Below are positions 5,815 to 21,933 of a DNA stretch of 21,933 nucleotides, piece by piece; positions within the stretch are counted from its first letter, which is position 1; the number at the start of each line of letters is the position of its first letter. The DNA lies in the NCBI GenBank assembly GCA_031372565.1, contig JANMLN010000170.1, forward strand, positions 1 through 21,933, in the 5' to 3' direction. The notes beneath the pieces are model-generated. The model did not search any database. It was not told the DNA's origin and was given only the letters and a program-made list of their open reading frames with translations. This DNA is from Gemmatimonadota bacterium. GTDB taxonomy: Bacteria > Gemmatimonadota > Gemmatimonadetes > Gemmatimonadales > Gemmatimonadaceae. The position numbers and the translations under genes are program-made.

Positions 5815-6216
5815 ATGCGCGTACTCAAGCATCGCGCGACCGAGGGTCGCCTCCGCAAGGTGCGTCACGCGCACGGCGCGGAGCGGACCAAGACGCGCAT
5901 CATGAAGGGCGACGTGGTGAAGATTCTCCGCGGCGACGACAAGGGGAAGGAAGGGAAGGTGTTGGAGATCCTTCCGAAGACCAACCGCGTGCTCGTCGAG
6001 GGGATCAACATCGTGAAGCGCCACCAGCGGGCGCGGAGCGCCGAGGAACAGAGCGGCATCATCGAGAAGCCGGCGCCGATGGCGCTGTCGAACGTGATGC
6101 TCATTGACCCGAAGTCCGGAAAGGCGACGCGCATCAGGGCGCGGATCGATGCTGACGGGACGAAGGAGCGGCTGAGCGCGAAGTCGGGCGAGTCGATCGC
6201 CCGGCCGGCCCGCTAG
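5815..6216 (+). CDS. rplX: 50S ribosomal protein uL24 with basic N-terminal extension
   Basis: KOW motif [31 protein letters not shown]. Confidence 0.95.
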
Positions 6217-6234
6217 CCCCCAGAGGACAGAATC

Positions 6235-6921
6235 ATGGCGACCAAGGAAAAGAAGGGCGCGGAGAAGGGGAGCAAGGCGTCGGCCGGGTCTGGCAAGGGC
6301 CAGCGCCAGGGGTCGATGCTCCCGACGTCGCACGCCGGCAGTGACCGGCCGGTGCCGGCGCCCCGTCTCAAGGCGCATTACACCGATCAGGTGCGCGAGC
6401 GCCTGAAGAAGCAGTTCAGCCTGGAGAACCCGCACCAGATCCCGAACCTCGAGAAGGTCGTGATCAATGTCGGGCTCGGCGAAGCGATCAAGCAGCCCAA
6501 GCTGCTCGACGTGATCGTCGAGGAGCTCGCGCTGATCACCGGCCAGCGTCCGGTTCGCAAGAAGGCGAAGAAGTCGATCGCCAACTACGGACTGCGCGAG
6601 GGGCAGGAGATCGGGGCGGCCGTCACGCTGCGCGGCACGCGCATGTGGGAGTTCGTCGACCGGTTCATCTCGACGGCGGTGCCACGCATCCGCGACTTCC
6701 GCGGGCTGGGCACGCGCTCGTTTGACGGCCGCGGGAACTACTCCGTGGGCATCAAGGAGCAGATGATCTTCCCGGAGATCAACTTCGACAACGTCGACTT
6801 GATCCACGGCATGGACATCACGTTCGTCACGACGACGAATCGCGACGACCACGCGCTGGCACTGTTGAAGGAACTTGGCATGCCGTTCCGCGGCGAAGAC
6901 CGCGCCGCGAACGCCCGCTGA
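6235..6921 (+). CDS. rplE: 50S ribosomal protein uL5 with ~40-aa N-terminal extension
   Basis: ITGQRP, PRIRDFRG, SFDGRGNY, IFPEI motifs; GAGG SD before ATG 6235. Confidence 0.97.
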   Translation: MATKEKKGAEKGSKASAGSGKGQRQGSMLPTSHAGSDRPVPAPRLKAHYTDQVRERLKKQFSLENPHQIPNLEKVVINVGLGEAIKQPKLLDVIVEELALITGQRPVRKKAKKSIANYGLREGQEIGAAVTLRGTRMWEFVDRFISTAVPRIRDFRGLGTRSFDGRGNYSVGIKEQMIFPEINFDNVDLIHGMDITFVTTTNRDDHALALLKELGMPFRGEDRAANAR

Positions 6922-6936
6922 GCCAACGAGGATCCC

Positions 6937-7242
6937 ATGGCGAAGAAGAGCAGCATCGAGAAGAACGACCGCCGCAAGGCGACGGTCCTGCAGTACGCGG
7001 AGAAGCGCCGGAAGCTGAAGGCGATCCTCCGGGACCCGAAGGCGTCCGAGGCCGACAAGGCCAAGGCGTACACGGCGCTGATGAAGCAGCCGCGCGACGC
7101 CTCCGCGACGCGCGTGCGCAACCGGTGCAGCATGACCGGCCGTTCACGCGCCTACATCGGCACCTTCGGTCTCGGCCGCATGGCGTTCCGCGACATGGCC
7201 CTCAACGGGCTGATCCCCGGCGTCCGCAAGGCGAGCTGGTAA
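6937..7242 (+). CDS. rpsN: 30S ribosomal protein uS14, long (101 aa) form lacking the zinc ribbon
   Basis: MAKKSSI ... [14 protein letters not shown] ... [11 protein letters not shown]; only one Cys. Confidence 0.97.
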
Positions 7243-7265
7243 GCTCGCCTTCGCACGCCTTCACC

Positions 7266-7299
7266 TCCTACAGGTCCGGCTGGACCGGATACCATAGGA
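7266..7299 (+). promoter_or_regulatory. Candidate uS8-binding mRNA hairpin (16S helix-21 mimic) covering the rpsH Shine-Dalgarno
   Basis: UCCUA-C-A-GGUCCGG-(CUGGA)-CCGG-AUA-CC-A-UAGGA; 3' arm contains AGGA 7 nt before ATG 7307. Confidence 0.65.
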
Positions 7300-7306
7300 C
7301 TCTGAC

Positions 7307-7708
7307 ATGAGCATGACCGACCCGATCGCCGATATGCTGACGCGTATCCGGAATGCTTGCGGAAGCAATCACCGGCGCGTTGACCTTCCGGCGAGCAAGA
7401 TGAAGACGGAAGTGGCGCGTCTCCTCAAGGAGAACGCCTTCATCCACGACTACCGCCTCGTCGAGAATGACGAGGGCCGTCCGATGCTGCGCGTGATCCT
7501 CAAGTACGCGCATGGCGGCCAGTCGGTGATCCGTGAGCTGCACCGCGTGTCGACGCCGGGCCTGCGCAAGTACGTGGGCGTGAGCGAGATCCCGCGCGTG
7601 CGCAACGGGCTCGGCATTGCCATCCTCTCGACCTCGCGCGGACTGATGTCCGACCGCGAGGCGCGCGCCTCCCGTACCGGCGGCGAACTGCTCGCCGTCA
7701 TTTGGTAG
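7307..7708 (+). CDS. rpsH: 30S ribosomal protein uS8
   Basis: MSMTDPIADMLTRIRNA, RVSTPGLRKY, GLGIAILSTSRG motifs. Confidence 0.98.
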   Translation: MSMTDPIADMLTRIRNACGSNHRRVDLPASKMKTEVARLLKENAFIHDYRLVENDEGRPMLRVILKYAHGGQSVIRELHRVSTPGLRKYVGVSEIPRVRNGLGIAILSTSRGLMSDREARASRTGGELLAVIW

Positions 7709-7716
7709 GAGGCACC

Positions 7717-8256
7717 ATGTCGCGAATTGGAAAGCGCCCGATCCCGCTGCCGGCGGGGGTGACCGCCACGATCACCGGGCACGATATCAAGGTGAAGGGC
7801 CCGAACGGCGAGCTGTCGCGTGCGCTGCACCCCGAGCTGGTGGTGGAAGTCACGCCGACCGAACTGCTGGTGAAGCGTCCGTCCGAGGAGACGCGCCACA
7901 AGGCGCTGCACGGACTGACGCGCACCCTGGTCGCCAACATGGTCGAAGGGGTGACCAAGGGCTATCGGAAGGAGCTGCAGATCACGGGCGTCGGCTACAA
8001 GGCCGAAGTGAAGCCCTACGGGCTGTTGCTCTCGGTCGGGTACTCGCACACGATCGAGGTCAAGGCGCCGGCGGGGATCAAGCTCACCGCGCCGCAGCCG
8101 ACGCAGGTGCTCGTGGACGGAGCCGACAAGGAGAAGGTTGGGCAGGTGGCTGCGGAGATCCGCAACCTGCGTCCGCCCGAGCCGTACAAGGGCAAGGGAA
8201 TCAAGTACGCCGGCGAAGTAGTCCGGCGAAAGGCCGGCAAGGCGGGGGGTAAGTAA
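7717..8256 (+). CDS. rplF: 50S ribosomal protein uL6
   Basis: MSRIGKRPI, HGLTRTLVANMVEGV, RPPEPYKGKGIKY; start ATG 7717 after AGGAGG. Confidence 0.98.
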   Translation: MSRIGKRPIPLPAGVTATITGHDIKVKGPNGELSRALHPELVVEVTPTELLVKRPSEETRHKALHGLTRTLVANMVEGVTKGYRKELQITGVGYKAEVKPYGLLLSVGYSHTIEVKAPAGIKLTAPQPTQVLVDGADKEKVGQVAAEIRNLRPPEPYKGKGIKYAGEVVRRKAGKAGGK

Positions 8257-8259
8257 GCG

Positions 8260-8613
8260 ATGCGAGTTCGTAATCCGAAGACGCGCCAGGAGCTGCGCGC
8301 GCGCCGTCACCTGCGCGTACGCAAGCGCGTGACCGGTGTCGCCGAGCGCCCCCGGCTGGTGGTGTTCCGTTCGCTCAAGCACATCATGGTGCAGCTCGTC
8401 GACGACGTCGCGCGGCACACGCTGATGACGGTGAGCGACCAGAAGCTCACGGGCAAGAAGATGGAGAAGTCGGTGGCGGTCGGAAAGCTGATCGCCGAGA
8501 AGGCCAAGGCGGCTGGGATTGCCAAGGTGGTCTTCGACCGTGGCGGGTACAAGTTCCATGGCCGAGTGAAGGCTGTGGCCGATGGCGCCCGAGAGGGCGG
8601 CCTGGAGTTCTGA
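8260..8613 (+). CDS. rplR: 50S ribosomal protein uL18
   Basis: [41 protein letters not shown]. Confidence 0.97.
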
Positions 8614-8615
8614 TC

Positions 8616-9398
8616 ATGGCTGAAATCGGTGGGTCGGGCGTGCCAGGCGGCGCAGGTGGCAACCGTGCTCCGTCGGCGCGTAGCGGCGGCGGGCGTGGTG
8701 GTCCCGGTGGTGGTCGCGGGCGCGGTGGCCCGGGCGCAGGGCGCGGCGGACCGGGGCGTGGAGCTCCGGGCGGCGGTGCGGGCGGCCGTGGCGGCGATGG
8801 TCGTGGCGCGCCGGGTGGCGGCGGGGATCGTTCCCGCGGTCGTGACGGTGGTCGTGGCGGCGCCCCGCAGGGCGATCGCGAGGGGAGCGATCTCCTCGAG
8901 AACGTGATCGCGATCAATCGCGTCGCGAAGGTGGTGAAGGGCGGCCGCCGGTTCTCCTTCAACGCGCTGGTCGCCGTTGGCGACGGGCAGGGGAAGGTGG
9001 GCTATGCGACCGGCAAGGCGAACGAAGTGTCGGAGGCTGTCCGCAAGGCGGTCGACGGGGCGCGTCGCCACATGGTCCAGATTCCGCGGACGGGCAACAC
9101 GATTCCTCACGAGATCATCGGCCAGCACGGCGCCGGTCGCGTCTGGATGAAGCCGGCCGCGCCGGGTACCGGTGCGATCGCGGGGGGCGCGGTTCGCGCG
9201 ATCCTCGAGTGCGCCGGCATCACCGACATTCTCACGAAGAGCCTCGGCTCCACCAACCCGCATAACATGGTGCGGGCCATGATGGACGGGCTGACGCAGC
9301 TGACGACGGTAGAGCAGATCGCGAAGGAACGCGGGCTCGACGTCTCGGCGTTGCAGTATCGTTCGCGCGCCAAGGTCAAGGAGGTGACGCATGGCTAG
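8616..9398 (+). CDS. rpsE: 30S ribosomal protein uS5 with ~90-aa Gly/Arg-rich N-terminal extension
   Basis: [42 protein letters not shown] motifs. Confidence 0.96.
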
Positions 9399-9645
9399 GA
9401 CATTCGTGTGGCACCGCACGCGCGGGCCCAAGCACACCCCGAAGGAGCAGGCGCCGACGACCGGCATGGTCGAAGTCCGTCAGGTGAAGAGCGGGATCGG
9501 CCACCCGGCCGTGATGCGCCGGACCTTGGCGTCGATCGGTCTGCACCACCACCAGGACGTTGTCGTGAAGCAGGACTCTGCTTCGCTGCGCGGCCAGATC
9601 AAGCACGTGCGTCACCTGGTAACGGTGACGCCGGTGAAGGAGTAG
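9391..9645 (+). CDS. rpmD: 50S ribosomal protein uL30 with N-terminal extension
   Basis: VRQVKSGIG...TLASIGL...[11 protein letters not shown]; strong AAGGAGGT SD before ATG 9391; position between rpsE and rplO. Confidence 0.92.
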
Positions 9646-9651
9646 TTGACG

Positions 9652-10110
9652 ATGAGCGAGCACATCGGCCTGCACAACCTCGTTCCCGCGCCCGGTTCCC
9701 ACCGGAACCGCAAGCGCATCGGGCGGGGTCCCGGCTCCGGCCACGGCAAGACGTCGGGCAAGGGGCACAAGGGCATCAAGGCGCGCTCGGGCCACCACGG
9801 CCATGGCGGCAACAAGCCGCACTTCGAGGGCGGGCAGATGCCGCTCACGCGCCGCATTCCGAAGCGCGGGTTCACCAACCCGTTCAAGGTGACGTACGAC
9901 GTGGTGCGTCTGGACGAGCTGGACCGCCTGCCGGCGGGAAGCGAAGTCAGCCACGATTCGTTGGTCGAGGCCGGGCTCGCCCGGGCCGGCCATCCGGTGA
10001 AGGTGCTCGCCAACGGCCTCATCGCCAACGCGATCACCATCAAGGGCATCAAGGTCAGCACCGGGGCGAAGGAGAAGATCGTCGCCGCGGGCGGCCGCGT
10101 CGAGGAGTAG
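9652..10110 (+). CDS. rplO: 50S ribosomal protein uL15
   Basis: RIGRGPGSGHGKTSGKGHKG, FEGGQMPLTRRIPKRGF; start ATG 9652 (or TTG 9646). Confidence 0.97.
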   Translation: MSEHIGLHNLVPAPGSHRNRKRIGRGPGSGHGKTSGKGHKGIKARSGHHGHGGNKPHFEGGQMPLTRRIPKRGFTNPFKVTYDVVRLDELDRLPAGSEVSHDSLVEAGLARAGHPVKVLANGLIANAITIKGIKVSTGAKEKIVAAGGRVEE

Positions 10111-13006: not shown

Positions 13007-13031
13007 GGCGTCGCGTCGGTTCGAGGTGGCA

Positions 13032-13058
13032 GGGGGCGGCGCCGGTAGCGCTGCCCCT
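13032..13058. terminator. GC-rich hairpin between convergent map and hydrolase genes (possible bidirectional terminator)
   Basis: GGGGCGGCGC-CGGTA-GCGCTGCCCC stem with one G-U pair, between stops at 13006 and 13065. Confidence 0.5.
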
Positions 13059-13064
13059 CGTCGT

Positions 13065-13841
13065 TTACGCCAGGCCGGCGCGCATGAAGTGCGCCTCGAG
13101 GCTCGGACGCACCCGGGCGCTATCCGTGAGCGGCGCCATGTGCGAGGCCTCGGCGATCTCGTCCAATGCCGCGTGCGGGTTCGCCCGCGCCAGCCCGTGC
13201 GCCATGGCCACCGCGGGGCGTCGGGTGGCCGCGCCGTACGCGATCGTGAGCGGCGACGCGCGGTGCCAGTCCGCGAAGGTGTCGGTGCCGTAGAAGATGT
13301 CGTACAGCTCGGCCACCAGCTTTCCACCGACGGCCGTGACCCCTGCGCGCGCCTTTGCCGACATGCGATCGAAGGTGCCCGCCCCGTTCCAGTAGTCGAT
13401 GAAGCCGCCACACCACGCTTCGAAACCGGCGAAGTCGGCAGCAAGAGACTCGGGCGACGTGAAGAACGCCAGCGCTTCTGCCCGTGCCTCGGGGTCGGAT
13501 GCCGGGTCGTTGCGCAGCGCACCGAAGATGACCGGTTCGTAGACCCAGATGGAGCGCAGGATCGGCGCGAGCTCGGCGGCGAGGCGGAGCGCGACCAACC
13601 CCCCGTACGAGTGGCCCACGAGATGAAGCGCCGTCACGTCTGCCGGAAGCAACGCGCGCACGTGCGCCGCGTCAGCGCTGAGTCCGATCCGTTCCCCGAG
13701 GGCGACCGGCGGATTCGGCGGATACCCGAGCAGGGACGGTGCGATGACGCTCACGCCGGCGAGCGCCGGGATGCGCTCCAAAAAGCGCCACATCGAGGCT
13801 GGCGAGGCCGACGAATGCAGGGCGAGGACGACGGTGCTCAT
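13065..13841 (-). CDS. Alpha/beta fold hydrolase
   Basis: LALHSS N-terminal strand, GHSYGG nucleophile elbow, YEP, C-terminal ASHMAPL catalytic His. Confidence 0.9.
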   Translation of the reverse strand: MSTVVLALHSSASPASMWRFLERIPALAGVSVIAPSLLGYPPNPPVALGERIGLSADAAHVRALLPADVTALHLVGHSYGGLVALRLAAELAPILRSIWVYEPVIFGALRNDPASDPEARAEALAFFTSPESLAADFAGFEAWCGGFIDYWNGAGTFDRMSAKARAGVTAVGGKLVAELYDIFYGTDTFADWHRASPLTIAYGAATRRPAVAMAHGLARANPHAALDEIAEASHMAPLTDSARVRPSLEAHFMRAGLA

Positions 13842-13881
13842 GAGCGAGGAGGCTACGGCCAGCGCGGTGCACTGCCGAGGG

Positions 13882-14166
13882 TCAGGCGCCGTCGGCTTGC
13901 GGCTCGGCGTCGATCATGGGAGGTGGCACGACGGGGACACCCGGCGGCGTACGGCCGGCTGGGGCCATGGCCGGCGCGTCGTCGGCGGTACGGTCGGGCA
14001 CGTCGTGTTCGCGGGAGACGATGGCGCGTCCCTGCCGCTTGAGGGCATCGCGGAGGAGGAACTCGATGTGTCCGTTGACCGACCGAAGCTCGTCAGCGGC
14101 CCACGATGCGAGGGCATCGTGGACCGCCGGGTCGAGCCGCAGCAGGAAGGGTTTGCGCGGGGCCAC
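13882..14166 (-). CDS. Arc-like ribbon-helix-helix DNA-binding protein with Pro-rich tail
   Basis: RKPFLLRLDPAVHDALASWAADELRSVNGHIEFLLRDAL fits the RHH pattern (alternating strand, helix, RSxN, helix); lies just downstream of SPFH gene. Confidence 0.85.
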   Translation of the reverse strand: MAPRKPFLLRLDPAVHDALASWAADELRSVNGHIEFLLRDALKRQGRAIVSREHDVPDRTADDAPAMAPAGRTPPGVPVVPPPMIDAEPQADGA

Positions 14167-14201
14167 CGGACGTCAGTGCGCGCGGAACGACAGCGGCATC
14201 A

Positions 14202-15068
14202 TCAGTACATCGAGCCGGCGTTGACCACCGGCTGTGTCGAGCGTTCGGAGCAGAGCACCACGAGCAGGTTGCTCACCATCTGCGCTTTGCGCTCGTCATC
14301 AAGCTCCACGATCTTCTTCGCGGAGAGCAGCTCGAGCGCGTTCTCGACCATGCCCACCGCGCCCTCGACGATCTTGGTGCGCGCGGCGATGATGGCGCTC
14401 GCCTGTTGGCGCTGGAGCATGGCCTGCGCGATTTCCGGCGAGTAGGCGAGATGGCTGATGCGCGCCTCCACCGCCTCGACACCGGCCTTGGCCAGTCGCT
14501 CCTGAATGGCGAGCCGCAACGCGATGGACACCTCGGCCATGTGCGTGGACAGCGACTCGGCGCCCGAGTCGTGGGCGTCGTACGGGTAGCTCGACGCCAG
14601 CCCGCGCACGGCCGACTCGCTTTGCACGGTCACGTACTTCTCGTAGTCGTCCACCTCGAAGAGCGCCTCGGCGGTGTCGATCACCTTCCACACGACCACC
14701 GCCCCGATCTCGATCGGGTTGGAGTGGGAATCGTTCACCTTGAGCTTCTGCGTCTCGAAGTTCCGGACGCGGAGGGAGATCTTCTTCTTGGTGAAGAACG
14801 GATTGGCCCAGAACCAGCCGGGGGTCTTGATCGTGCCCTTGTAGGTACCGAAGAGGACGAGGACGCGCGCCTCGCCGGGTTCCACGATGAAGCTGCCGCA
14901 GGCACACACGAAGGCGACCATGCCGAGGGCGAAGCTGCCGAACGTGCGCAGCGGATGTGCATTGACGGCTCCGGCCATGACGCCGCCGGCGGCAACGAGC
15001 ATGAGCGCGACGAAGATGAGGAGCATGAGCGCGCCTGAGGGGGCGCGGAACTCTTTCTCTCGAAACAC
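14202..15068 (-). CDS. SPFH/band 7 domain membrane protein
   Basis: Two N-terminal hydrophobic segments, FGTYKGT...[42 protein letters not shown]; start moved to GTG 15068 (GGAG 8 nt upstream) because ATG 15107 lies inside the promoter. Confidence 0.92.
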
Positions 15069-15097
15069 AGGAGGAACTCCGGTAGGGTGACATCTAA

Positions 15098-15126
15098 ACG
15101 ATATCATATGGATATCATGGTGTCAA
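15098..15126 (-). promoter_or_regulatory. Sigma70-type promoter of SPFH-RHH operon with overlapping GATATCAT direct repeats
   Basis: Minus strand TTGACA (15126-15121), 17-nt spacer, TG-n-TATCGT (-10 at 15103-15098); GATATCAT at 15100-15107 and 15111-15118. Confidence 0.75.
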
Positions 15127-15194
15127 GGAATCCCGTATCGCGGAGAGAGGGTTCCCCCGATGTCCAAAGATGACAAGCAGTTGCATCGTTGCCC

Positions 15195-16688
15195 ATGGGA
15201 AAAAGCCTGGACAGGGATTCCTTCACCGACGCGGAGTTCAGCGAGTTCGCCGAGCGAACACGCGAGCAGTTGAAGGCGCTCAGCTTTCTGCTGGAGCGTG
15301 ACGGGTTTGGCGAGGGAGCCACGAGCGTGGGCGCGGAGCTCGAGCTCGACATCGTGGATGGCGAGGGTCGACCGCTCGGGATCAATCGCGCCGTGCTCGC
15401 GGAGGCGCTGGATCCGCGCTGCACGCTGGAGCTCGACCGGTTCAATCTCGAGATCAACCTGACCCCGGTGATCGCGGCCGGCACTCCGTTCTCGCGTATC
15501 GGAGCGGAGATGAAGACCCTGATGGGGCTCCTTGGCGAAGCGGCTGAGCCACGCGGTGGGCGCATCGTGGCGGTGGGAATCCTGCCGACGCTCATGGAGA
15601 GCGACCTGCAGCGCGACGCGCTGACCGACCTGCCTCGTTATCGCGCGCTCTCGAACGGTCTTCGGCGCTGGCGCGAGGCGCCGTTTCGGCTGCGCATGGA
15701 TGGTGCCGATCCACTCGACATCACGGCCGACGACATCACGTTCGAGGGGGCGAACACCTCGCTGCAACTGCACCTTCGCACGTCGGTGGCGGATTTTGCC
15801 CGCACGTACAACGCGGCGCAGCTGGTGACACCGGTGGCGCTCGCCATCGGCTCGAATTCACCGGTGTTCTGCGGGCACCGGTTGTGGGACGAGACGCGGG
15901 TGGCGCTCTTCAAGCAGTCGCTCGATCATCGCGACGCCGAAGCGGTGCGGCGTCGGCTGCCGGCGCGCGTGGCGTACGGATATGGCTGGGTGCGGCAGGG
16001 GGCGTGGGAGCTGTTCGCCGAGGCGGCGTCGCTGTACCCACCGCTGATTCCGCGGCTCGAGGATGAACGCGAGGACGCCTTGGGGATGGCGCGGACTGGC
16101 GGCGCCCCCGCCCTGCGCGAGCTACGCCTGCACCAAGGCACCGTGTGGCGGTGGAACCGGGCGATTTACGACTCCGGCATGGGTGGGCACCTGCGGATCG
16201 AGTTTCGGGCGTTGCCGGCGGGGCCCACGACGGCCGACATGATGGCGAGCGCCGCGTTCCTGATCGGGCTCACGGTCGCATTCCGCGACCGGGTGGATGC
16301 CTTGCTTCCGTCGATGCCGTTCCTGTACTGCGAAACGAACTTCTATCGGGCGGCGCAGGACGGGATCGAGAGCACGCTGCTCTGGCCGGAGGCGGATGCA
16401 CCGAGTCCGCGGATGGTCAGCGCGCGTGAACTGGCCGGGCGGCTGTTGCCGCTGGCGGCGGAGGGGTTGGCGACGCTTGGCGTCGATGACGCGGAGATCG
16501 CGCGGTGCCAGGACGTGATCGAAGGGCGCCTCGCGACGCGCACGACGGGGGCGAGATGGCAGCGACGCGCGCTGGCACAGCTCGGAGACAAGCAGCCCAC
16601 GCCGGAGATGCTACAGCGGATGCTGGAGGGATATCTGGCGGAGGCGCGCACCGGGCGACCGGTGCACGAGTGGCGCGAGACGGTGTGA
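15195..16688 (+). CDS. Glutamate-cysteine ligase family 2 (GCS2) / carboxylate-amine ligase
   Basis: VGAELELDIVD, ELDRFNLEINL, NTSLQLHL, SNSP, RWNRAIYD, HLRIEFRALPAGPT; start ATG 15195 preferred over TTG 15189; substrate not determinable. Confidence 0.85.
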   Translation: MGKSLDRDSFTDAEFSEFAERTREQLKALSFLLERDGFGEGATSVGAELELDIVDGEGRPLGINRAVLAEALDPRCTLELDRFNLEINLTPVIAAGTPFSRIGAEMKTLMGLLGEAAEPRGGRIVAVGILPTLMESDLQRDALTDLPRYRALSNGLRRWREAPFRLRMDGADPLDITADDITFEGANTSLQLHLRTSVADFARTYNAAQLVTPVALAIGSNSPVFCGHRLWDETRVALFKQSLDHRDAEAVRRRLPARVAYGYGWVRQGAWELFAEAASLYPPLIPRLEDEREDALGMARTGGAPALRELRLHQGTVWRWNRAIYDSGMGGHLRIEFRALPAGPTTADMMASAAFLIGLTVAFRDRVDALLPSMPFLYCETNFYRAAQDGIESTLLWPEADAPSPRMVSARELAGRLLPLAAEGLATLGVDDAEIARCQDVIEGRLATRTTGARWQRRALAQLGDKQPTPEMLQRMLEGYLAEARTGRPVHEWRETV

Positions 16689-16735
16689 GGTCGGAGTGAG
16701 CGCGGGGAAGGACGTCGGTGTTGCAGCGGAGGGGG

Positions 16736-16784
16736 AGAAGCAGGTCCTTCGCTGCGCTCAGGACGACGGATCGCTCAGGACGAC
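16736..16784. repeat. REP-like extragenic repeat, copy 2, plus partial tandem copy
   Basis: AGAAGCAGGTCCTTCGCTGCGCTCAGGACGACGG (16736-16769), then TCGCTCAGGACGAC (16771-16784) overlapping the ftcD stop. Confidence 0.8.
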
Positions 16785-18295
16785 AGGGTCTGCTCGATCA
16801 CGTCCTGCGCGACCCGCGATGCGGCACTGGCACGCGCGAGTGCCGTGGCAACCGCTGCCGCGAGCGGCGCACCGCGCGGGTCCGAACCGAGCAACGCCAC
16901 ATTGATCCGCACGTTGTAGGCCGCGCCGCGCGCGCCCGCTTCGGCGAGCAGCGCCGCCACACCGGCGTCCGACACCGCGTTGCTGTTGCCGTCGCGTGCG
17001 ACCACCGCCGCGAGCTCGGCCGCATCCGCGCAGGCTTCGGCCGTCTCGAGTGGAACGCGCGCCGCTTCGACGAGCGCGTCGGCGATCTTCGCATCGCGTC
17101 CCTCGGCGCCCGGGCCGTCCTTGGGCAGCTTGTACGCGTTGCTCACGCCGGTGTACGCGTCGGCGTCCTGCTGCACGAGGGCTGAGCAGCGCGTGACGAG
17201 CGCGGCGGCCTTGATCGCCAGCGCCTTCATCTCGGGTTCGACGCCTGCGTACTTCTTGCGACCGATGGTGAGTCCCGCGACCATCTGCGCGAGCGCCGCG
17301 GCGAGCGCGCCCGCATGCGCGCTCACGGAGCCGCCGCCCGGAACGGGGGCCGGACCGGCGATGTCGCCCAGGAAGCCGCTCACGGACGTGCCACCGCTGA
17401 CGGCGTCGCGCACCTTGCGATCGAGCACCTGTGCGGTCGTGAACTGGGTGAGCTGCAGATGACGAGCGGCGGCGTCGAAGAGCACCTTCTCGGGGACGAG
17501 GCCGACGATCTCGCTCCAGGTGGGCGAGACGCCGCGTGCCTCGGCTTCCATCTTCACCATGTCGAAGGCGCGATGGAGCGGTGTCTTGTCGGTGTCCACG
17601 AGGTTCATGGAGACCTGCGCCTGCCCATCGACTTCGAGGCCGAGCCCCTTCACGTAGCGAAGTCCACCACTCGAGCCCCGCACGGCCTTGGCGACGTCCT
17701 TGGCCACGGCGAGGTTCTTCGCATCACCCAGATAGACGTTGTACGCCACGAGGAACGGGCGCGCGCCGTTGACCGTGGCGCCCGCGGTCGGGTGCACGGC
17801 GTTGGGCCCGAAGTCCGGGATGCGCGCCGGGTTGGTGCCGATCTCCGTGCGCGCGAGTTCGAACTCGCCGCGACGGATGTCCGCGAGGTTCTCCCGGTCC
17901 GCTCGCGTGGCGGCGCGCTCATACAGGAAGACCGGGATCTGCAGCGCGCTGCCGACCTGCTCGCCGAGTGCACGCGCGAGCGCGATGCAGTCATCCATGG
18001 TGGCGCCTTCGAGCGGGATGAACGGGACCACGTCCGTTGCACCGATACGCGGATGTTCGCCCGCATGCGTGGTGAGGTCGATGAGGTCGCGCGCCTTCGC
18101 GATGCCGGCAAACGCGGCGGCCACGGCGTGCTCTGCGCCAACGACGAAGGTGCAGACGGTACGGTTGTGACTGGCGTCGCTCGATACATCGAGCACGACG
18201 ACAGACGGGACCGCCGCGATCGCGTCACGGATGGCGGCGATGACCTCGGGGCGGCGCCCCTCGGAAAAGTTGGGCACGCACTCGATGAGCTTCAT
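16775..18295 (-). CDS. ftcD: Bifunctional glutamate formimidoyltransferase / formiminotetrahydrofolate cyclodeaminase
   Basis: N-terminal LIECVPNFSEGRR, GEHPRIGATDVVPFIP, GARPFLVAYNV, QVSMNL; C-terminal cyclodeaminase PVPGGGSVSA, GNSNAVSDAGVA, YNVRINV. Confidence 0.95.
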   Translation of the reverse strand: MKLIECVPNFSEGRRPEVIAAIRDAIAAVPSVVVLDVSSDASHNRTVCTFVVGAEHAVAAAFAGIAKARDLIDLTTHAGEHPRIGATDVVPFIPLEGATMDDCIALARALGEQVGSALQIPVFLYERAATRADRENLADIRRGEFELARTEIGTNPARIPDFGPNAVHPTAGATVNGARPFLVAYNVYLGDAKNLAVAKDVAKAVRGSSGGLRYVKGLGLEVDGQAQVSMNLVDTDKTPLHRAFDMVKMEAEARGVSPTWSEIVGLVPEKVLFDAAARHLQLTQFTTAQVLDRKVRDAVSGGTSVSGFLGDIAGPAPVPGGGSVSAHAGALAAALAQMVAGLTIGRKKYAGVEPEMKALAIKAAALVTRCSALVQQDADAYTGVSNAYKLPKDGPGAEGRDAKIADALVEAARVPLETAEACADAAELAAVVARDGNSNAVSDAGVAALLAEAGARGAAYNVRINVALLGSDPRGAPLAAAVATALARASAASRVAQDVIEQTLSS

Positions 18296-18304
18296 GCGCG
18301 AAAG

Positions 18305-19117
18305 CTACAGCACGCCGAGGAGCCAGTCATGGAGCACGCCGTTGCTGGCGACCACCGGCGTGTGCGCGACGGGGCAGTCGGCACCGTCGAGCGTGGTGAC
18401 ACGCCCGCCGGCTTCGCGCACCAGCAGCAGGCCGGCCGCGATGTCCCACGGCGCGAGCTTGAGCTCCCAGAAGCCATCGAAGCGACCGCACGCAACGTCG
18501 GCCAGATCGAGCGCCGCGGCGCCCGCACGCCGTACCCCGGCCGTGCTCGCGAGAATGCGTGGCAGCTGTGCCATGTACGCCGGTATCTGTTCGCGGTGCT
18601 TGAACGGGAATCCGGTGCCGAGGAGCGCGCGAGCCGGGTCGCGCTCGGTCGAGACGTGGATTGGTTGTCCGTTCCGACGGGCACCACCGCCCGCGGTGGC
18701 GGTGAACAGCTCACCGGTGGCAACGTTCAACACGACGGCAGCGGCGATCTCCCCGTCCACGAGCGCGCCGATGGACACCGCGTACCACGGGAAGCCGTGC
18801 AGGAAGTTGGTGGTGCCATCGAGCGGATCGACGACGAACGCCGTGCCCTTGGGGGGCACCGTGGCATCGGGCGAGAGTTCCTCGCCGATGACGAGCGCGC
18901 CGGGATGCCGTTCGAGCAGGACCTTCCGGATGAGTTGCTCGGCACCTTCGTCTGCCACGCTCACGAAATCGGACGGGCCCTTCTCGGTGACGACGAGCTG
19001 CTCGCGCGTGAGCGCATGCGTGCGCAGCAGTTCGGCTGCTTGCGCCGCTGCCGCGACCGCGCTGGCGAGCAGGGCGCGATGCGGTGTGCGCGACGGTGTG
19101 GGCGTTGCTTGCTCCAT
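18305..19117 (-). CDS. suhB: Inositol monophosphatase family protein (SuhB-like)
   Basis: DFVSVAD, GEE, VDPLDGTTNFLHG, RRAGAAALDLADVACGRFDGFWE, PWDIAAG; start ATG 19117 after GGGAG; orthology to suhB likely but unverified. Confidence 0.88.
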   Translation of the reverse strand: MEQATPTPSRTPHRALLASAVAAAAQAAELLRTHALTREQLVVTEKGPSDFVSVADEGAEQLIRKVLLERHPGALVIGEELSPDATVPPKGTAFVVDPLDGTTNFLHGFPWYAVSIGALVDGEIAAAVVLNVATGELFTATAGGGARRNGQPIHVSTERDPARALLGTGFPFKHREQIPAYMAQLPRILASTAGVRRAGAAALDLADVACGRFDGFWELKLAPWDIAAGLLLVREAGGRVTTLDGADCPVAHTPVVASNGVLHDWLLGVL

Positions 19118-19143
19118 GTGGAAACGCTCCCTACCTTGCGCCC
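19109..19143 (+). promoter_or_regulatory. Predicted promoter giving a leaderless trpS transcript
   Basis: TTGCTC (19109-19114), 17 nt, TACCTT (19132-19137), 6 nt, ATG 19144; no SD. Confidence 0.55.
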
Positions 19144-20124
19144 ATGTCACGCATCTTCAGCGGCATCCAACCCTCGGGGGAGCTGCACATCGGGAACTAC
19201 CTCGGCGCGGTGAAGAACTGGGTGTCGATCCAGTCCCGCCACGAGAGCTTCTTCTGCATCGTGGACTTGCACGCGATCACGGTTCCGTACGAGCCCGCGG
19301 TGCTTCGCGAGCGCACGCACGCGATGGCGTTGACGCTGTTTGCCGCCGGACTCGATCCGTCGCGCACGTCGGTGTTCGTGCAGAGCGCGGTGCGGGAACA
19401 TACCGAGTTGCAGTGGATCTTCAACACGGTCACCCCGCTCGGCGAGCTCGAGCGCCAGACGCAGTACAAGGAGAAGTCGGCACGGCAGGAGCAGGTCATG
19501 GCGGGGATCCTCAATTATCCCGTGCTGCAGGCCGCCGACATCCTGCTGTACCGGGCCGATGTGGTGCCGGTCGGAGAGGATCAGGTGCAGCATCTCGAGC
19601 TGTCGCGCGTGCTGGCGCGGAACTGGAATGCCCGCTTCACGGCCGGCTTTTTTCCGGAGCCACAGCCGCTCCTGGCGCCGACGCGGCGCCTGATGGGCCT
19701 GGACGGGCAGGCGAAGATGTCCAAGTCGCTCGGCAACACGATCGGTCTGATGGAAACATCCGAACAGACGTGGGCCAAGCTGCGCCCGGCGGTCACGGAT
19801 CCTGCGCGCGTGAAGAAGACGGACCCGGGCAATCCCGACATCTGCAACATCTTCCAGTTGCACAAGGCATTCTCGCCCGAGGCGACCGTCACGCACGTCG
19901 CTGCCCAATGCCGGAGCGCGGGGTGGGGGTGCATCGACTGCAAGAAGGTGCTGCACGAGCAGATGACCGCGGAGCTGACGCCCATCCAGGCGCGCGCGCA
20001 GGAGATGTCGGCCGAGCCGCACCGGTTGGCTGACGCGCTGGGCGATGGCGCGGCGAAGGCGCGCGCGGTGGCGAGTGAGACGATGCACGCGGTCCGTGAT
20101 GCGATGGGACTGGCCGGAGGATGA
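19144..20124 (+). CDS. trpS: Tryptophan-tRNA ligase
   Basis: FSGIQPSGELHIGNYLGA (HIGH), YPVLQAADILLY, VPVGEDQVQH, KMSKS; start ATG 19144. Confidence 0.97.
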   Translation: MSRIFSGIQPSGELHIGNYLGAVKNWVSIQSRHESFFCIVDLHAITVPYEPAVLRERTHAMALTLFAAGLDPSRTSVFVQSAVREHTELQWIFNTVTPLGELERQTQYKEKSARQEQVMAGILNYPVLQAADILLYRADVVPVGEDQVQHLELSRVLARNWNARFTAGFFPEPQPLLAPTRRLMGLDGQAKMSKSLGNTIGLMETSEQTWAKLRPAVTDPARVKKTDPGNPDICNIFQLHKAFSPEATVTHVAAQCRSAGWGCIDCKKVLHEQMTAELTPIQARAQEMSAEPHRLADALGDGAAKARAVASETMHAVRDAMGLAGG

Positions 20125-20816
20125 TGGTGGACCAGATGATGTCGAAGGGGATGCAGGAGATGGTCCAGGTGCTGCGCCTCGACCTGACGGCCACGCTCCT
20201 CATCGCGGTCATCCTTGGCGGTGCCATCGGGATGGAGCGGCAGTTGGCGGGCAAGCCGGCCGGGCTTCGCACCAACATCCTGATCTGTGTCGGCACGACG
20301 CTGCTTGGCGACCTCTCGATCCGGATGGGCGGCGTGGGAGGACATGCGGGCCCGAGTCCGTCGATGATCGCGGCGCAGGTCATGAGCGGGATCGGCTTTC
20401 TCGGCGCCGGCACCATCATGAAGGAAGGGGGGATGGTCCTGGGGCTGACTTCTGCCGCGACCATCTGGATCGTGGCCGCGATCGGCCTCTCGCTCGGGGC
20501 TGGACATCGGCTCGAGGCCGCTGGAACCGCATTCATCGTGATGCTGACGCTCGCAGCCCTCGGGCCGCTGGAGCACAGGCTGTTGCGGGCGACACGGATC
20601 GTGCCCGCGACGGTTCGCGCCCACCCCGGCACTGCGCTCTCGGTGCTGACGGAGAGCCTGGCCTCCTACGGAGTGAAGGTGCGGCACTCGGCCACCTACG
20701 ACCATTCGATGGACCGCGTCTTCGAGCTGGTGCTGGCGGGCCCGGCGTCCCAGATCGACATCATCGAGCAGGTGCTGCGGCAGCGGCCGGATGTCTTCTC
20801 GGCCCGTATCGGGTAG
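20121..20816 (+). CDS. MgtC/SapB family membrane protein with C-terminal ACT-like domain
   Basis: GGAIGMERQ...KPAGLRTNILIC, IAAQVMSGIGFLGAGTI, GLTSAATIW; ATGA overlap with trpS; several alternative ATGs. Confidence 0.92.
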   Translation: MMVDQMMSKGMQEMVQVLRLDLTATLLIAVILGGAIGMERQLAGKPAGLRTNILICVGTTLLGDLSIRMGGVGGHAGPSPSMIAAQVMSGIGFLGAGTIMKEGGMVLGLTSAATIWIVAAIGLSLGAGHRLEAAGTAFIVMLTLAALGPLEHRLLRATRIVPATVRAHPGTALSVLTESLASYGVKVRHSATYDHSMDRVFELVLAGPASQIDIIEQVLRQRPDVFSARIG

Positions 20817-20827
20817 CTTCCCCGATC

Positions 20828-21933
20828 ATGGAACGGATCATCAAGGCGGCGGTCGATCGGGGAGCGACGGACCTGCACATCAAGGCCGGCGACGTCTTCC
20901 GTGCGCGGATCAACGGCCAGCTCGTGCCGCTGACCAAGCAGGCGCTCACGCCCGAGCAGACCAAGGCCATCGCGCTCCGCCTGATTGCGAACGAGGAGGA
21001 CCGCGCGCGTATTGACCGGATCCTCGACTACGACTGCTCGTGGGGTGCGAGCGGGATCGGGCGGTTCCGGGTGAACATCCTGCGGCAGCGGTCCAGCTTC
21101 ATGATCGTGCTGCGCGTCATTCCGTTCGAGGTGCCCAGCATCGAGAAGCTGGGACTGCCGCCGCAGTTGGAGAGCGTGGCACTGGCGGAGCGCGGCCTCG
21201 TGGTGGTGACGGGGCGGCGCGGTGCGGGCAAGTCGAGCACGGTGGCCGCACTCCTCCACCACATCAACCAGTGCGTCAACCGGCACATCGTCACGCTGGA
21301 GAGCCCGATCGAGTTCCTGCATCGCGACTTGCAGTCGAGCGTGACGCAGCGCGAGGTCGGGGTCGATACCGGGACGTTTCGCGAGGGAATGCGCGCTGCG
21401 CTGCGCCAGGATCCCGACGTGATCGTGATCGGCGACATGCGTGACGTGGAAACCATGGACACGGCGCTCAAGGCGGTCGAGACCGGGTTTCGCGTCATCA
21501 CCTGCCTCGATGCGAACGATGTGCCTATGGCGCTGCAGCGCATGATCACGCTCTTTCCGCTGGAGGAGCAGGAGCATGCGCGTGTGCGCCTGGCCGAGGC
21601 GCTGCACTCGGTCGTGGCCCTGCGGGCCGTGTCGCGCCCGGAGGGCCAGGGGCGCACGAATGCCGTCGAGCTGCTGCTCATGACGCCGATGATTCGCGAT
21701 GTGCTCATCGAGGGGACGCGCATCGGGGATTTGCGCGAGCTCATGGCGGCCGCGCGCGAGCAGTGGGGCATGCAGACCTTCGACCAGCACCTGATCGAAC
21801 TGGTGGAAACGGGGACGATCACCGCCGATACCGCGCTCGGTGCGGCCTCGCGCGCGAGCGAGATGGAGGCGGTGGTCGGCCACTTGCGTCGTCGCACCCC
21901 GCTCGGCACGCGCGCGGTGACGCCGCCCGCGGG
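20828..21933 (+). CDS. PilT/PilU-family type IV pilus ATPase homolog with degenerate catalytic motifs (3' end outside window)
   Basis: Hand translation: MERIIKAAVDRGATDLHIKAG...GRFRVNILRQR...VTGRRGAGKSST...TLESPIEF...QREVG...ALRQDPDVIVIGDMRD...GMQTFDQHL; open to window end, so absent from ORF track. Confidence 0.92.
   Translation, partial: MERIIKAAVDRGATDLHIKAGDVFRARINGQLVPLTKQALTPEQTKAIALRLIANEEDRARIDRILDYDCSWGASGIGRFRVNILRQRSSFMIVLRVIPFEVPSIEKLGLPPQLESVALAERGLVVVTGRRGAGKSSTVAALLHHINQCVNRHIVTLESPIEFLHRDLQSSVTQREVGVDTGTFREGMRAALRQDPDVIVIGDMRDVETMDTALKAVETGFRVITCLDANDVPMALQRMITLFPLEEQEHARVRLAEALHSVVALRAVSRPEGQGRTNAVELLLMTPMIRDVLIEGTRIGDLRELMAAAREQWGMQTFDQHLIELVETGTITADTALGAASRASEMEAVVGHLRRRTPLGTRAVTPPA

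Follow-up and report, generated by a model that had tools for sequence, protein, structure and literature searches.

The question raised by this locus is why a ribosomal protein gene cluster that is otherwise closely packed contains a gap of 64 nt directly in front of rpsH, the gene encoding uS8. The window, by which we mean the whole analysed stretch of 21,933 nucleotides from a Gemmatimonadota bacterium (contig JANMLN010000170.1), carries on its + strand an S10-spc ribosomal protein cluster that runs from rplC (477) to rplO and is followed by secY, adk and map, as assigned from open reading frames and Pfam matches. The spacer at 7243-7306 lies between rpsN (uS14, 101 aa; 6937-7242, + strand; Pfam Ribosomal_S14, E = 3.8e-23) and rpsH (uS8, 133 aa; 7307-7708, + strand; Pfam Ribosomal_S8, E = 1.1e-45). 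As an earlier sequence-only reading of this DNA had pointed out, no other neighbouring ribosomal protein genes here lie so far apart, all remaining gaps from rplC to rplO measuring at most 18 nt. The rplX-rplE gap reaches this value of 18 nt with the start of rplE taken at 6235, and this start is considered real because the MATKEKK N-terminus is kept in relatives; a start downstream of 6235, which would give a longer gap, was rejected since the N-terminus is conserved. A start of rpsH earlier than 7307 is excluded by an in-frame stop at 7295-7297. Downstream, the AUG of rplF at 7717 is located 8 nt past the rpsH stop, and the genes rplF-rplR-rpsE-rpmD-rplO (7717-10110, + strand; open reading frames and Pfam) follow each other with gaps of no more than 8 nt or with overlaps. 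A promoter and terminator scan of 6800-7500 yielded nothing within the rpsN-rpsH spacer.

The sequence-only reading had proposed that the spacer holds an autoregulatory leader in which a mimic of 16S rRNA helix 21, the uS8 site, controls translation of rpsH. The comparative analysis reported here supports this proposal through a conserved core, compensatory changes, a fixed position and identity to helix 21, and we conclude from these sequence comparisons that 7266-7299 is probably a cis-acting uS8 translational operator, a hairpin with an asymmetric internal loop that copies the uS8 core of helix 21. The uS8 protein would then be the repressor and rpsH the first regulated gene.

To assess conservation of the spacer, the S8 protein of the window was scanned against genome contigs, and the best 80 of 597 confirmed matches were taken. 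The S8 proteins nearest to that of the window bear Gemmatimonadetes or Gemmatimonadaceae names. The closest among these 80 are eight loci, L001-L008, with S8 proteins that are 74-82% identical to that of the window and adjacent coding DNA that has diverged by 0.15-0.27 substitutions per site. In a tree calculated from 1400 nt beginning at the rpsH start for 19 of the 81 sequences (17 Gemmatimonadota and two outgroups), the window and L001-L008 form a clade, and the separating branch has a support of 1.000. The nine members thus represent one clade and are mostly metagenome-assembled genomes. Their rpsN-rpsH spacers are long (64, 169, 174, 157, 129, 81, 99, 51 and 124 nt for the window and L001-L008) and unalignable save for one element that ends 7-17 nt ahead of the rpsH AUG. 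On its 5' side, the shared element consists of a lower stem of 5-6 bp, a bulged purine, one covarying pair and an invariant GUCC, and on its 3' side of an invariant GGA, a U (7/9) or A (2/9), an invariant AC, the base that completes the covarying pair and the 3' strand of the lower stem. Conservation of the core in relatives, on which the proposal had been staked beforehand, was found at the same place before rpsH in all nine, and in every member the conserved structure lies immediately upstream of the rpsH ribosome-binding site or overlaps it. Within the best 80 of 597 matches, neither the eight Gemmatimonadota that are more distantly related nor the 64 remaining loci contain the element. Six of these Gemmatimonadota (L009, L012-L014, L016 and L017), with S8 proteins 61-66% identical to that of the window, have rpsN-rpsH spacers of only about 1-16 nt.

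In the window, the element (7266-7299, + strand; 34 consensus positions) is intergenic throughout, and the 5' part of the spacer (7243-7260) is not conserved among relatives. Its lower stem is formed by U7266-A7270 and U7295-A7299. The 5' strand of this stem (7266-7270) belongs to an anti-SD-like stretch at 7261-7270, of which 7261-7269 are identical to 9 nt of the E. coli 16S rRNA 3' terminus, while the 3' strand (7295-7299) holds the sole SD-like element, AGGA at 7296-7299, 7 nt before the AUG. Above the lower stem, C7271 stands opposite A7294 as a mismatch (594/645 equivalent), and A7272, the equivalent of A595, is unpaired; among the nine members this position is A in six and G in three. 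The 5' half of the core (7273-7276) starts with G7273, the equivalent of position 596, which covaries with 7293, and continues with G7274, U7275 and C7276, the equivalents of G597, U598 and C599, all of them invariant (9/9). In the 3' half (7288-7293), G7288 and A7289 correspond to G639 and A640, U7290 corresponds to U641 (U in seven members, A in two), A7291 and C7292 are the invariant equivalents of A642 and C643, and C7293 is the covarying equivalent of position 644. A reading of the sequence bore out the pairs that had been described for this core, namely G7273-C7293, G7274-C7292 and U7275-A7289 with U7290 and A7291 unpaired, as well as the lower stem with its C7271.A7294 mismatch and unpaired A7272. 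It likewise agreed on the apical part, where CCGG at 7276-7279 faces CCGG at 7285-7288 across a 5-nt loop at 7280-7284. The apical hairpin proper (7277-7287) contains the pairs C7277-G7287, an invariant C-G, G7278-C7286 and G7279-C7285. Beyond the invariant C-G pair, its length and sequence vary in relatives, the shortest form being a tetraloop and the longest a 32-nt insert, and four members have only three base pairs and a tetraloop above the core.

For comparison with the rRNA, E. coli helix 21 was read from rrsH, where the E. coli position equals the locus position minus 71. The residues that had been given for this helix (A595, A596, G597, U598 and C599 on one side; G639, A640, U641, A642, C643 and U644 on the other) are correct. 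The leaders share with helix 21 (E. coli nt 588-651) the asymmetric loop, the bulged purine at 595, the 596-644 pair, the pairs G597-C643, U598-A640 and C599-G639, and the unpaired positions 641 and 642, seven bases being identical in 9/9 members. The core accounts for nine of the 13 columns that are invariant in the alignment; these nine correspond to G597, U598, C599, G639, A640, A642 and C643, together with a C-G pair where E. coli has A600-U638. Both the alignment and the counted pairs support an asymmetric internal loop with the bulged 595 purine and unpaired 641/642 in all nine leaders. Equivalents of A642 and of the G597-C643 pair, which the S8 site requires (PMC4176348), likewise occur in 9/9, and a Watson-Crick equivalent of 596-644 occurs in 8/9, the exception being L002 with A.C. 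The only other deviation among the core bases is an A at the 641 equivalent, which L002 shares with L008.

As the S8 site is described in PMC4176348, it contains two base triples, A595-(A596-U644) and (G597-C643)-U641, and A642 is invariant and makes the sole conserved base-specific S8 contact. At the bases of the first triple, which is predicted to form in the leaders, three states occur: A-(G-C), A-(C-G) and G-(C-G). The G-(C-G) state of L004, L005 and L007 equals the triple G595-(C596-G644) of Thermus thermophilus helix 21 (PMC4176348). On the protein side, Tyr and Ser-Thr-Ser of S8 contact G597 and A642 (PMC4176348), and the S8 of the window, when aligned with E. coli S8, retains these RNA-contact residues. 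Unlike helix 21, the leader is part of an mRNA, its 596-644 equivalent is mostly C-G or G-C as opposed to A-U in E. coli, its lower helix is an SD/anti-SD-like pairing, and a short variable apical hairpin replaces the 39-nt distal part of helix 21.

Covariation in the spacers of related genomes had been named as a check on the structure. Pairs were counted on a MAFFT alignment (A1) that was not fitted to the structure, and the 11 pairs that had been described gave 99 cells over the nine sequences. Of these cells, 92.9% were paired, compared with 80.5% in shuffles, none of 500 reaching the observed value, and with 33-54% when the partners were slid against each other. Changes on both sides were found in four of the 11 pairs, and the covariation score was 0.346 versus 0.110 in shuffles (again 0/500 reached the observed value). 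Pair 13-61 is A-U in four members, C-G in three, G-C in one and U.G in one, and the sisters L001 and L007 differ here by a full flip from C-G to G-C. The pair equivalent to 596/644 is C-G in six members, G-C in two (the window and L003) and A.C in L002. This covariation favours the S8-like register over the G.U register predicted by RNAalifold, which breaks in two of the nine sequences. L002 and L004 also contain G.U pairs that on the opposite strand would become A.C mismatches, indicating that the + strand is the functional one.

A further co-change concerns the bases equivalent to 595 and 645 (A1 columns 15 and 60; window 7272 and 7294), which are both A in five members, A and C in L003, and both G in L004, L005 and L007. 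In the tree, L004 and L007 are each placed with an A/A sister, and L005 stands apart. No Watson-Crick relation underlies this co-change, for which a tertiary constraint or the closing of a C-G pair is a possible reason.

On its own, GTCC-N(3-33)-GGAWAC is a common pattern, with two matches in the window versus 1.73 expected and occurrences in 35 of the 80 loci. What is above chance is that, across relatives, it is conserved and covaries at a single fixed location. In L010, the rplX-rplE gap contains a GTCC...GGAAAC match that was rejected as a chance occurrence: its flanks are non-complementary, and the sister locus L011 reads GCCC. We also applied a structural descriptor that generalises the leader family and asks for a purine followed by a paired N, then GUC, one further pair, GAWAC and the partner N, with at least four of five lower pairs formed. 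A scan of 525 kb on both strands gave 16 matches, compared with an average of 7.8 over 20 shuffles. Leaders account for eight of the 16 (L002 fails), and one is E. coli 16S nt 597-643, the sole match in that rRNA; the descriptor test was not blind, as the E. coli sequence was already known when the requirement for GUCC/GGAWAC was loosened to GUC/GAWAC plus one pair. A covariance model of the element, R1, identified the window element as a unique match (37.1 bits, E = 1.5e-8; next E = 0.74). Over the 81 other loci (502 kb), only the eight training loci scored, followed by E values of 0.81 and 9.4. Applied to E. coli 16S rRNA, R1 missed helix 21 and gave its best match elsewhere (E = 3.3), since the SD-type lower stem dominates the model and the long distal part of helix 21 is penalised. 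Neither the covariance model nor the descriptor revealed a second copy in the window, including the region near rplE (6235).

For 7261-7309, RNAfold predicted a structure of -14.5 kcal/mol minimum free energy that contains the lower stem and apical hairpin described above but pairs G7274 with U7290, and the S8-like structure is calculated at -13.1 kcal/mol. Stability was not above chance compared with shuffles, either for 7261-7309 (z = -1.55; 16 of 200 shuffles fold equally well) or for 7243-7320 (z = -0.58). Nor did Rfam 15 match anything in the spacer, in a gathering scan of the window or in an E-value scan of 6200-7800. The case for the element therefore rests on comparison. The silence of Rfam carries no weight, because the E. 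coli S10/spc stretch with the known S8 operator is also unmatched. The sequence-only reading had further mentioned a competing GGUCC/GGACC hairpin. It can indeed form in the window, but it is weaker (-8.5 kcal/mol alone and -11.2 kcal/mol with the lower stem), and since a GUCC/GGAC version is possible in only one of the eight relatives (L005), it does not constitute a conserved switch.

The same reading placed the rpsH SD within the lower stem, and this holds for the window, where the SD bases 7295-7299 are paired with a probability of 0.92-1.0, and for five of the nine members overall. Specifically, the strongest anti-SD match lies inside the stem in the window, L003, L004, L006 and L008. In L001, L005 and L007, however, the strongest SD-like stretch is found 1-4 nt downstream of the stem, and L002 is ambiguous. 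As SD occlusion applies to about half of the members, the common rule is rather a uS8-type helix within the region that the 30S subunit must occupy. In initiation complexes, the 30S subunit covers a region that includes the 7-17 nt before the AUG. An element whose helix ends inside this region has the position expected of a translational operator.

The pairing of the SD raises the alternative that the hairpin acts independently of any protein, sequestering the SD and thereby tuning or lowering the translation of uS8 relative to uS14, with the resemblance to helix 21 being incidental. Such a role would be in line with the identity of 7261-7269 to 9 nt of the 16S 3' tail, with the high pairing probability of the SD bases and with the covariation of the lower stem. 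Plain occlusion, however, does not need an invariant asymmetric internal loop, and the strongest conservation is found in the loop core and not in the SD, which is outside the helix in three of the nine members. Moreover, all seven invariant positions that have a helix 21 counterpart match it, and it is only there that the descriptor matches E. coli 16S rRNA. We therefore regard a protein-independent hairpin as unlikely.

In the uS8 operator that we favour, free uS8 would bind the internal loop when 16S rRNA is limiting. Binding would clamp the helix, the 3' strand of which is the rpsH SD in the window or ends 1-4 nt before the SD in some relatives, and the clamped helix would block the 30S subunit or trap it at rpsH so that initiation does not occur. 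Translation of the packed genes from rplF to rplO, which are candidates for co-repression, would be expected to fall along with that of rpsH through translational coupling.

A different output is conceivable as well: uS8 might bind the leader and thereby cause mRNA cleavage or decay, as in the retroregulation of E. coli spc, or the leader might serve for the local capture of newly made uS8. The location of the SD outside the helix in three of the nine members is compatible with such an output, and in E. coli S8 destabilises the mRNA and through this also affects upstream cistrons, as outlined in the spc section of a 2024 review (PMC10931766). Against it stands the observation that in all members a distance of 7-17 nt separates the end of the helix from the AUG, so that decay or capture as the main output appears improbable to us, even more so than a protein-independent hairpin. 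That the resemblance arose by chance, or that the leader is a GC-rich intergenic hairpin inherited from a common ancestor as a remnant with no role, is very improbable despite the insignificant fold z-scores, the frequency of the bare pattern and the small sample, given that the core is invariant while the remaining spacer has diverged past alignment, that several independent compensatory changes have occurred, and that position and strand are fixed in 9/9.

The uS8 operator proposed here shares its principle with the E. coli spc S8 operator, an rRNA-mimicking site in the spc mRNA at a translation start to which the downstream genes are coupled (PMC3616713, PMC10931766). Its placement differs, as had been anticipated from the sequence: the element precedes rpsH, whereas the E. 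coli S8 site is located at the start of rplE (PMC3616713, PMC10931766). The E. coli operator lies almost entirely (~100%) inside coding sequence and overlaps the rplE start two genes upstream, whereas the Gemmatimonadota element is intergenic. Since the latter does not overlap rplE, both rplE and rpsN would escape direct control. The E. coli site also has extra bulged bases that the element lacks, and it belongs to a different phylum. Homology to the gammaproteobacterial S8-interacting RNA (Fu et al., 2013) was not found, R1 giving no match on E. coli spc DNA (L082). The element seems to have an origin separate from that of the E. coli S8 operator.

Two further systems offer partial parallels. 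The uS7 operator in the rpsL-rpsG spacer of the str operon is similar in that the repressor binds an rRNA-like intercistronic structure 5' of its own gene (PMC10931766), although the protein, the RNA and the operon all differ. In yeast, Rps22, the uS8 homologue, regulates itself via a stem with two bulge loops in the 5'-UTR intron of RPS22B (PMC13232506). Unlike the leader, this eukaryotic structure inhibits splicing, and in the comparison given in that study the authors could not align it with the bacterial site (PMC13232506).

Feedback by uS8 on spc is a textbook case that is known only in E. coli and close relatives. The E. coli operator overlapping the rplE start has, as described in PMC3616713, a narrowly gammaproteobacterial distribution, and the spc section of the 2024 review calls spc regulation in other species unknown and notes a lack of progress in phylogenetic studies (PMC10931766). 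In Eckert and Weinberg 2020 (PMC7247131), S8 is named in the reference list only. Our full-text literature search found no S8 operator before rpsH, in Gemmatimonadota or outside Gammaproteobacteria. What was computed here is a conserved structure with compensatory changes, identical in its core to helix 21 and located 7-17 nt from the rpsH AUG in one Gemmatimonadota clade. With somewhat less confidence than we attach to the operator itself, we lean towards the broader conclusion that this is the first uS8 autoregulatory operator outside Gammaproteobacteria, evolved independently in one Gemmatimonadota clade, with a feedback unit of rpsH-rplO and not rplE-rplO, and with variants that amount to a mutational series of the S8 base triples. 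The leader variants at 595-(596-644) and at 641 (U or A) may track changes in each organism's own helix 21.

If this is true, the same solution of rRNA mimicry arose twice for uS8 as a convergent operator, at another cistron boundary, in a poorly studied phylum and with a changed set of controlled genes. A gap in Rfam would be closed as well, since none of its models scores as an S8 operator even on the E. coli stretch. As the element is small (34 consensus positions) and wholly intergenic, it should provide a clean system for binding and reporter work.

Several additional observations were made on rpsN-rpsH spacers. The 5' spacer parts of the relatives contain long inverted repeats in L001 (2832-2950) and L002 (2827-2940) and, in L004 (2872-2950), a 9-nt unit repeated in tandem about seven times, whereas neither feature occurs in the short spacer of the window. 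In the Longimicrobiales loci L010 and L011, rpsN is missing between rplE and rpsH, where there is only a 58-nt gap (2940-2997). Among the Bacillaceae loci, including L018-L036, many Bacillales carry a tiny CCCG-loop-CGGG hairpin, or variants of it, that abuts the rpsH SD in a spacer of 28-34 nt, about 30 nt ahead of rpsH and without the S8-like core. Long rpsN-rpsH spacers of 84-250 nt also occur in L039, L066, L057, L044, L056, L065, L069 and L075. The hosts are Desulfobacterota-like genomes, a Lachnospiraceae and Acidobacteriota, and some of these spacers show obvious inverted repeats; no match to the covariance model or the descriptor was found at rpsN-rpsH in these other phyla.

Several ribosomal proteins of the window are unusually long. 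The N-terminal extension of uL5 (rplE, 6235-6921) comprises about 40 aa, is rich in Lys and Gly, starts with MATKEKK and is kept in the window and L001-L008; that of uS5 (rpsE, 8616-9398) is Arg/Gly-rich and about 90 aa long, and uL4 (rplD, 1156-2007) has a C-terminal extension of about 75 aa. The ribosomal protein cluster ends after map, and the remainder of the window extends over 13007-21933. None of the tested long + strand open reading frames past map gave a Pfam match for infA, rpsM, rpsK, rpsD, rpoA or rplQ, and a T2SSE domain (type II/IV secretion ATPase) was identified at 20045-21931.
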